Of a DNA stretch of 64,000 bases, positions 56,001-59,000 are shown one piece after another. The stretch lies in assembly GCF_003991155.1 (NCBI RefSeq), contig NZ_CP031295.1; one strand, written 5' to 3'. A program made the position numbers. Within the stretch, counting starts at the first letter, position 1; every line of letters begins with the position of its first letter. The DNA comes from Escherichia coli (GTDB lineage Bacteria > Pseudomonadota > Gammaproteobacteria > Enterobacterales > Enterobacteriaceae).

Positions 56001-59000
56001 GAAATCGAACTGGCATTCCATTCGCCGGAAACAGTCGGAAGCTGGCATGCACGCTGGAGTGACCGGGTGGCAGAGCATGACCTGGAAACCCTGTTCTGGC
56101 AGTGGGGCGAGCGTTTTCCGTCACTGGCCGGAATGGAACGCTGGCAGTGGCAGGATATGCCATTCTGGCAGGTCATCGCAGAGGCTGGTATGGCGGCAAG
56201 GGTGGTCGGTCATGCTGTTCGTGAGATGGAGCGGTGGATGGTGCCGAACAAACTCCGGGAGGCAGCGTGATGCGGCAACAATCACACGGATTTCCCGTGA
56301 ACGGTCTGAATGAGCGGATTATTTTCAGGGAAAGTGAGTGTGGTCAGCGTGCAGGTATATGGGCTATGATGTGCCCGGCGCTTGAGGCTTTCTGCCTCAT
56401 GACGTGAAGGTGGTTTGTTGCCGTGTTGTGTGGCAGAAAGAAGATAGCCCCGTAGTAAGTTAATTTTCATTAACCACCACGAGGCATCCCTATGTCTAGT
56501 CCACATCAGGATAGCCTCTTACCGCGCTTTGCGCAAGGAGAAGAAGGCCATGAAACTACCACGAAGTTCCCTTGTCTGGTGTGTGTTGATCGTGTGTCTC
56601 ACACTGTTGATATTCACTTATCTGACACGAAAATCGCTGTGCGAGATTCGTTACAGAGACGGACACAGGGAGGTGGCGGCTTTCATGGCTTACGAATCCG
56701 GTAAGTAGCAACCTGGAGGCGGGCGCAGGCCCGCCTTTTCAGGACTGATGCTGGTCTGACTACTGAAGCGCCTTTATAAAGGGGCTGCTGGTTCGCCGGT
56801 AGCCCCTTTCTCCTTGCTGATGTTGTACGGGCATGAACAACCTGACTTCAGGAAGGTCGTTTCCCTTCAGGAACGGGGATGAACGCGCGCCTGCGGCGCC
56901 CGTTCTTTTCCCCCGCCTTCTCTGGTTATGGCCTGTCAGAAATCACATCACCTTCCCTGTGATTATTCTCTTTTTCTTCCTGCTCTGATTCTGACTACTG
57001 CAGTGTTGTCCTGTCTGCCGGGCGTACCTTCGGCTCCCGGCTGCCTGGCGGCATCCGGTCGTCAGGCCCGACTCCGACAGGCAGCTGCTGGCGCACCTGC
57101 CAGTCTCCGCCGAACCCGCTGGCGCGGTTTCGGGCTGTCGCTACGGTCCGATGCGTGAAAACCCCTGGCTTGCAGCGACCGTTCCGGTCGCGCCGCCTCT
57201 GTCGCGCCGTGACCTGCGCTCCCGGCATCCCGGCAAAAGGCGCCGGGATGTAAGGCGCAACGCCGTTTCGCAAACCGCGCTTCACGTCGTTGCGGCGGGT
57301 CCCTGCCCGTTGTTGTGTCCGGTGCCATTCACCAGTTTAAGCCCCTGTCGCCGGGGGCATAGACAGCCACAACCGTCTCCGCCAGTCCAGGGGTGAAATG
57401 CACATCCCGCAAAACTTTTTGCCCAGAAGCAGGCAAAAACTTTTGCGGTCTGCCCCCGGACAGTCGTTTCCGGCCGTGGCAGTGATGCCCCATGCGGCGA
57501 AGGTTCTCAAACAGGTGATGGTGAATACCGGAGGGAACAAAAGGCAGGTCCCCGCAAAACGTCAAAACCGCGGCTCCCGAAACTCAACAGATGATGGGGG
57601 CTGAAAACCAGAGAGAGGAGAAAGCAGGATGAGTACCCGAAATATCCACGTTAACACCGCGTCGTACACGCTTCTTGTTGCCGGGAAGAAAAAAAACACC
57701 GGGGAAGAGTGGGACGTCCTGGAATTCAGCAGCCTGACTGAGCTGAAAAAATATCGCAAAAGCCACCCGGAAAAGATGGCCTTCAGTTATAGCTACGCGC
57801 TCAGTCAGGGTGTGGATAAGCAGTTCCGCCATATCAACATTGCGGAAGCCGATCACTTCAAACAGTTCCTGCGTCAGATTAAGCGTGCCGGCCTCGATAT
57901 CCGGGCGATCTGCTGACCGGATGTGATGAATATCCCTCCTGATTGTTGCAATCTTGTTAATGGAGATCGGGGGGATGATATTAAGCGGAAAAATTTTTTA
58001 TTAAATTTATTCTTTCATAAAGGAGTAGCTGTTATGCGATTAGCTTCCCGTTTTGGTCGGTATAATTCCATCCGCCGTGAACGTCCTTTAACGGATGATG
58101 AATTAATGCAGTTCGTGCCTTCGGTATTTTCCGGTGATAAACATGAGTCCCGGAGTGAACGTTATACGTATATTCCAACAATCAATATCATCAATAAGTT
58201 ACGTGATGAAGGTTTCCAGCCATTCTTTGCCTGTCAGAGTCGGATTCGTGATTTGGGACGTCGCGAATACAGTAAACATATGTTACGTCTTCGCAGGGAA
58301 GGGCATATTAACGGACAGGAAGTTCCTGAAATTATCCTGCTTAATTCACATGATGGTTCATCCAGTTATCAGATGATCCCCGGAATTTTTCGTTTTGTCT
58401 GCACAAATGGCCTGGTGTGCGGAAATAATTTTGGCGAAATCCGCGTTCCACATAAAGGTGATATTGTCGGGCAGGTTATCGAGGGAGCGTATGAAGTGCT
58501 CGGTGTCTTTGATAAGGTCACTGATAATATGGAGGCGATGAAAGAAATTCATCTTAACAGTGACGAGCAACATTTATTTGGCAGAGCTGCACTGATGGTC
58601 AGGTATGAAGATGAAAATAAAACGCCAGTGACACCTGAACAGATAATTACTCCCCGTCGTCGGGAAGACAAACAGAACGATCTCTGGACAACCTGGCAGC
58701 GGGTTCAGGAGAATATGATAAAAGGTGGATTATCGGGGCGAAGTGCCTCCGGGAAAAATACCAGGACAAGAGCCATTACAGGTATTGATGGTGATATAAG
58801 AATCAACAAGGCGTTATGGGTGATTGCCGAACAGTTCAGAAAGTGGAAGTCATGATAATATAAGTAAAGCCCCGAAAAAATTTTCGGGGCTTTACTTATA
58901 TTATCATTTTTCGGCATTGCTGTGTCGTCTGATATACCTCAATTTCATCAACCGGATTTCCGGTTGTCTGTAAATATTGTGCCCGCGAAAAATGGTCTGG

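Follow-up and report, generated by a model that had tools for sequence, protein, structure and literature searches.

Results

Hok and mok reading frames

The 64,000-nucleotide stretch of Escherichia coli plasmid DNA analysed here (the window) contains, downstream of psiA, a 52-aa ORF for a Hok toxin and an overlapping 70-aa leader ORF of the flmC type, mok, which is read in a different frame and covers the hok start codon (ORF list; Table 1). Hok matches the Pfam family PF01848 (HOK_GEF; E=1.2e-21, 76.5 bits, cutoff 22) and the NCBIfam model for Hok family toxins, NF007279 (126 bits, cutoff 73). Mok matches PF17496 (DUF5431, which corresponds to Mok/FlmC; E=2.6e-41) and, among the equivalogs of NCBIfam, NF010277 (152 bits, cutoff 110), which is named "modulator of post-segregation killing protein". 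An exact-protein look-up in a collection of 15 billion proteins found the two products to be letter-for-letter identical to HOK_ECOLX (Protein Hok) and FLMC2_ECOLX, respectively (UniRef names). The first-pass annotation had described a 52-aa Hok with an overlapping mok frame, and the ORF list, the family models and the exact UniRef matches all bear this out. Neither an IS insertion nor a frameshift was found in hok or mok when the sequence and the ORF list were inspected. The mok frame would be needed for translational coupling to hok. Annotated Hok coding sequences vary in length among plasmids (120-162 nt); the one annotated in F has 126 nt and begins at an internal start.

The genes srnB of F, pndA of R483 and the chromosomal hokA-E/gef loci belong to the same Hok/Gef toxin family and share the same logic of mRNA refolding and antisense control. 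A tblastn search of the 64 kb, for which Hok and SrnB-like and PndA-like sequences served as queries, returned a single hok-family locus; neither this search nor a degenerate DNA pattern detected a second, srnB/pnd-like locus in the window. Protein identity between the window's Hok and the SrnB-like and PndA-like query sequences is about 34-39%, and the score of Hok against the HokA equivalog NF007290 (44.6 bits) lies below the cutoff of 89.

Table 1. Positions of the hok/mok/sok elements and of neighbouring landmarks in the window.
Feature	Position	Strand	Basis and remarks
Direct repeat, copy 1	48225-48880		non-coding
Direct repeat, copy 2	51524-52191		non-coding
psiA	55551-56270		preceded by psiB; psiA ends at 56270
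hok promoter	56341-56370	+	-35 TGGTCA (56341-46), 18-nt spacer, -10 TATGAT (56365-70); consensus scan
Full-length hok mRNA, 398 nt by R1 numbering	56377-56774	+	register from 29/29 R1 positions
tac (translational activator) element, mRNA 5' end	56377-56386	+	folds; invariant in 10/10 aligned loci
Sok antisense RNA, ~64-66 nt	~56502-56437	-	fold; overlaps mok SD and AUG
ucb / anti-SD box	~56443-56450	+	A70 G71 C72 = 56446-56448; positions of Le Rhun et al.; truncated-leader fold
mok Shine-Dalgarno (SD) GAGG (G105, A106)	56481-56484	+	R1 position match; in stem of hairpin 56481-56518
mok (flmC-type) leader ORF, 70 aa	56492-56704	+	ATG 56492, TAA 56704; ORF list and family matches
Putative Sok promoter	56508-56536	-	-35 TTGCGC (+56531-56536), 17-nt spacer, -10 TATCCT (+56508-56513); inferred from sequence
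hok Shine-Dalgarno AAGGAG	56535-56540	+	9 nt 5' of hok ATG; sequence; GCAAGGAG invariant in alignment
hok toxin ORF, 52 aa	56550-56708	+	ATG 56550, TAG 56708; ORF list and family matches
3' stem-loop GGCGGGC-GCAG-GCCCGCC	56716-56737	+	fold -24.6 kcal/mol, z = -4.9
fbi (fold-back inhibition) element CUGAAGCGCC	56763-56772	+	pairs with tac in MFE structure
Distal hairpin AAAGGGGCUGCUGG-UUCG-CCGGUAGCCCCUUU, then CUCCUU	56778-56809	+	-25.1 kcal/mol, z = -5.4
Direct repeat, copy 3	56951-57608		non-coding
oriT nic sequence GTGTGGTGCTTTT	59744-59756	-	~3 kb from hok/sok

Register and allele type

The comparison with R1 was based on the exact protein and on the 29 nucleotide positions of the minimal parB region of R1 that are named in a FASTBAC-Seq mutational study (Le Rhun et al., PMC9841398). 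When +1 is placed at 56377, all 29 positions match, while the next best register accounts for 13 of them. The matches include T-12, A-11 and T-7 of the published R1 -10 box TATGAT, which in this register coincide with the window's -10 hexamer; G4, C5 and T6 in tac; A70, G71 and C72 in ucb; G105 and A106 in the mok SD; T117 and G118 in the mok AUG; A159, A163, A166 and A169; G176 in the hok AUG; nine positions in hok codons, at all of which the encoded amino acid is the published one; and T330 and G332 in the stop codon. At the positions checked (29 nucleotides and the protein) no difference was seen from R1 hok/sok (parB; GenBank X05813; HOK_ECOLX), Hok being identical and the elements and predicted folds the same. 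From the 29 versus 13 matches it follows that, judged by its sequence, the window carries the R1 allele, and in the register of R1. The 3' end of the mRNA in Table 1 assumes a length of 398 nt, which we take from the Gerdes-lab literature to be that of the full-length transcript.

The flmA/flmB/flmC genes of plasmid F occupy the same place after psiA in the leading region, the psiB-psiA-hok synteny being shared. The F locus is 93% identical to the window at the DNA level overall, and FlmA differs from the window's Hok at one of 52 residues (H39Y; His39 in the window, Tyr39 in F). In the promoter, tac, fbi and the 3' hairpin, 97-100% of positions agree. In contrast, identity falls to 70% in the Sok/FlmB region (window 56437-56502), where two small indels affect the antisense hairpin; the antisense allele in the window is therefore of the R1 type and not of the F type. 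That the divergence from F is concentrated in this region suggests a diversification of antisense specificity. Thus, the 29 R1 positions, His39 and the Sok region all set the window locus apart from F flm. The first-pass annotation had named F flm and R1 hok/sok as the loci to compare, and the outcome is an R1-type allele from which F flm diverges at the Sok region.

Extent of the locus and predicted folding of the hok mRNA

The locus had been placed at 56440-56708 in the first-pass annotation. Sok, mok and hok do lie within this interval, but the hok promoter, the first 63 nt of the mRNA and the 3' UTR are left out: the hok promoter, tac, the metastable hairpin and most of ucb are missing on the left side, and the 3' UTR with its processing hairpin and fbi, together with the distal hairpin, on the right side. 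The functional locus spans approximately 56341-56810.

The full-length mRNA is predicted to fold with a minimum free energy (MFE) of -175.9 kcal/mol (z = -8.25 versus shuffles), tac pairing with fbi and thereby closing the molecule. Upon removal of the last 37 nt, the refolded mRNA has its 5' end freed. In the 5' 74 nt folded alone, tac pairs with 56446-56450 in ucb, the pairs G4-C72, C5-G71 and U6-A70 being formed as published. In the leader fold, the mok SD lies in a hairpin of its own (56481-56518, loop CUAGUCC). The alternative tac/ucb stem and the mok-SD/dcb hairpin both agree with the structures of Le Rhun et al. (PMC9841398).

Suppressor positions published for the 3' UTR map to the region of the 56716-56737 stem-loop, which would constitute the end of the processed, truncated mRNA (~361 nt) and protect it. 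The distal hairpin is possibly the true intrinsic terminator, in which case it would give rise to a longer full-length isoform; two bands of full-length hok mRNA have been reported (Le Rhun et al., PMC9841398). A second G+C-rich hairpin is found 3' of the hok mRNA, before copy 3 of the repeat (56887-56915, + strand).

The Sok antisense RNA

The ends of Sok at about 56502 and 56437 are those that we presume from the R1 literature and from promoter-like hexamers. The RNA so delimited is complementary to the mok SD/start region and folds into a long hairpin between a 13-nt free single-stranded 5' tail and a U-rich 3' end (-26.5 kcal/mol, z = -6.07). Its putative promoter lies where a Sok promoter should be, and in the hexamers TTGC.. 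and.A...T are kept in all 10 aligned loci. A generic promoter scan did not flag this promoter, since it has only 7 of 12 matches to the sigma-70 consensus, and for want of a hit in that scan the assignment is kept as putative.

Two sources of misannotation deserve mention. The Rfam family RF01794 ("sok") matches 56376-56552 on the + strand (88.9 bits versus a gathering threshold of 59, E=3.5e-19), that is, the sense strand, covering the leader of the hok mRNA up to the hok AUG; the Sok-coding minus strand is unmatched. A Sok gene annotated from this match would thus be assigned to the wrong strand and given the wrong extent. In GenBank CP057369, "protein sok" is a 62-aa CDS (12274-12462 in L001), whose counterpart in the window is a 74-aa ORF at 56285-56506 (- strand). 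We do not regard this ORF as a real gene, since neither Pfam nor NCBIfam gave a hit and it overlaps the gene for the antisense RNA; the "protein sok" CDS is hence probably an annotation artefact.

Conservation among plasmids

The locus, taken as 551 bp, was matched in more than 5,000 plasmids, at least 1,438 of them at 99% identity or more among the matches listed; these are mostly conjugative plasmids of Escherichia, Klebsiella, Salmonella and Shigella. Ten loci with identities down to 80% were aligned: the window, F flm and eight others from plasmids. When the full-length structure derived from the window was imposed on this alignment, 88.5% of cells were paired versus 35-44% with slid partners, a fraction that is inflated relative to the slid controls because the tested structure came from the window itself. 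Eleven pairs are changed on both sides. None of the covariation falls in the tac-fbi helix, whose nine pairs are 100% paired and invariant in the 10 aligned sequences; its support is therefore conservation and not covariation. In the 3' stem-loop, relatives carry compensatory changes, C-G to G-C at the loop-closing pair and U-A to C-G.

Identity to the window varies along the locus. It is 100% in 9 of 9 relatives for fbi and 92-100% for the leader from tac to ucb, and the distal hairpin is 82-100% conserved in 8 of 9 relatives. The Sok region is 66-76% identical (F flm included) and the linker beside fbi 38-88%, with values down to 38-50%; the hok coding sequence drops to 73% and, in the most distant relatives, the hok promoter to 30%. 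A folding machine that is conserved while the region of antisense specificity diverges is a known pattern, and this profile conforms to it.

Leading-region context

Gene calls and Rfam matches show surroundings that are standard for the leading region of an IncF plasmid. An ArdA-like antirestriction gene and methyltransferase genes are followed by ssb, a ParB-like gene, psiB, psiA and hok/sok; then come the ~650-bp repeat, a pair of genes placed as ygeA/ygeB are in F (the second with a DUF932 domain), an SLT transglycosylase gene (- strand), the oriT nic site (- strand), traM, and traJ with FinP. The end of psiA at 56270 and the minus-strand nic site at 59744-59756 uphold the placement of hok/sok in the leading region by the first-pass annotation. 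With nic on the minus strand at a distance of about 3 kb, hok/sok ranks among the earliest DNA to reach a recipient, and the earlier claim to that effect stands.

Such a position has been documented for hok/sok in F-like leading regions (Loh et al. 1988; Couturier et al. 2023; Samuel et al. 2024). Toxin-antitoxin genes are enriched in leading regions, and FlmC, which is related to Hok/Sok, is a leading-region-enriched family of 2,672 members with a median ORF position of 4 from oriT and in T-strand orientation (Samuel et al. 2024).

The ~650-bp direct repeat is non-coding and present in three copies that are 75-100% identical. Copies 2 and 3 (90-97% identical) flank the segment from ssb to psiA-hok/sok. 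The claim that hok/sok lies directly before copy 3 is roughly correct, but about 175 bp with two hairpins intervene between the end of the mRNA (~56774) and the repeat (~56951). Folded as single-stranded DNA, the minus (transferred) strand of copy 3 is predicted to form an imperfect hairpin of about 330 nt (z = -8.9), a fold consistent with single-strand promoters of the Frpo type. F, which has been described with two Frpo repeats where the window plasmid has three repeat copies, also carries its hok/sok-type locus (flm) between two such repeats.

Discussion

Hok/sok, a textbook module of "plasmid addiction", is the founding example among type I toxin-antitoxin systems. The copy described here, which an IncF multiresistance plasmid carries in its leading region, is an already known and ordinary one: it is almost certainly a functional R1 parB (hok/mok/sok) module, and its sequence holds nothing that speaks against this. 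In the published R1 model, a weak hok promoter would direct synthesis of a stable 398-nt mRNA that is inert as long as its 5' tac element is paired with fbi near the 3' end; by closing the molecule, this pairing would both sequester the ribosome-binding site of mok and block the binding of Sok. Slow exonucleolytic trimming from the 3' side, up to the hairpin at 56716-56737, would remove fbi, upon which tac would pair with ucb and the hairpin carrying the mok SD and start would become exposed. In cells carrying the plasmid, the abundant but unstable Sok RNA, transcribed from the minus strand, would bind the exposed region and RNase III would cut the duplex. Following plasmid loss, Sok would decay first, mok would be translated and hok along with it by coupling; the 52-aa Hok membrane peptide would then kill the plasmid-free cell, and the plasmid would be stabilised in the population. 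The sequence features needed by every published step are present in the window. That both RNAs are transcribed, that processing and RNase III cleavage occur and that killing results in the case of this copy is what one would predict because its sequence is identical, over the positions compared, to that of the experimentally characterised R1 parB locus. As a plasmid-stability module, the locus would help multiresistance IncF plasmids to persist without selection; the practical weight of this identification is small.

Other explanations concern the role for which the same module has been selected rather than its identity. One of them, tentative but the best placed, is that hok/sok acts here as a guard of the leading region: recombination between two Frpo repeats would delete sok along with the intervening genes and thereby kill the cell. 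Such a role has been proposed for flmAB in F (Couturier et al. 2023), and it would suit both the presence of copies 2 and 3 on either side of ssb...psiA-hok/sok and the hairpin that the minus strand of copy 3 is predicted to form. However, the third copy of the repeat (48225-48880) leaves the interval between copies 1 and 2 unguarded and, in the literature, R1 parB is described as stabilising unrelated replicons whatever the context. A guarding function is compatible with plasmid maintenance, the explanation favoured here, and does not exclude it.

It is less probable still, and on balance rather unlikely, that the module owes its presence to a function in establishment or defence, killing recipients that destroy the incoming plasmid or aborting phage infection after host transcription is shut off. 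The enrichment of toxin-antitoxin genes, the FlmC family included, in leading regions (Samuel et al. 2024) speaks for this idea, as do the reported exclusion of T4 by overexpressed R1 hok/sok (Pecota & Wood 1996) and the fact that the transferred strand is the template for hok and not for Sok. Against it, no experiment is known to tie hok/sok to conjugative establishment, and hok, sok and flm go unmentioned in a 2025 paper on the early-conjugation transcriptome. Furthermore, deletion of Frpo2, which in F lies upstream of the block listed through flmC, was without effect on conjugation efficiency (Couturier et al. 2023). Like the guarding function, roles in establishment, anti-defence or phage exclusion are compatible with the core mechanism of plasmid stabilisation.

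The polarity of transfer poses a puzzle: the transferred strand does not allow the antidote to be made, and still the killer locus is found consistently about 3 kb from nic. As the nicked strand is the minus strand, all leading genes on the plus strand, hok/mok among them, are templated by the strand transferred, but Sok is not. Between the Frpo-like repeat at 51524-52191 and hok, no strong plus-strand terminator was found; with Sok untemplated until the complementary strand is made, read-through into hok could precede any synthesis of Sok. One may speculate, with little confidence, that hok mRNA is made in this way upon entry and that its inert tac-fbi fold and slow 3' processing act as a timer, so that the cell is rescued by Sok if establishment succeeds and dies otherwise. 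Were this so, recipients that degrade the plasmid (by restriction or CRISPR) or fail in second-strand synthesis would be killed, which would amount to an entry-stage addiction or an anti-defence role. Our literature search returned no paper addressing whether hok sense RNA precedes Sok in new transconjugants.

Finally, the possibility that the locus is a decayed, non-functional relic, as are several chromosomal hok loci, can be dismissed with hardly any reservation since its elements are intact: the ORFs, start codons, SDs, -10 box, tac, ucb, fbi and 3' hairpin match R1 at the positions checked, and hok and mok are free of IS insertions and frameshifts.

Other features of the window

Just downstream of copy 1 of the repeat, the Rfam family RF02875 ("AS-pc01, antisense to pHK01_035") matches 49004-49103 on the - strand (98.9 bits), overlapping the start of a 76-aa ORF (49098-49328). 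Positions 1-44000 of the window comprise a multiresistance region and IncF backbone; among the genes and elements of the best-matching plasmids are floR, tet genes, ISVsa3, ISAba1, parM and those for a Tn3-family transposase and a Y-family polymerase. A match to the class 1 integron attI/aminoglycoside-leader lies at 21353-21431, and the Rfam family "Enterococcus sRNA 30" matches 29412-29576 (- strand, 195 bits), a stretch that is also matched by 245 Enterococcus plasmids.
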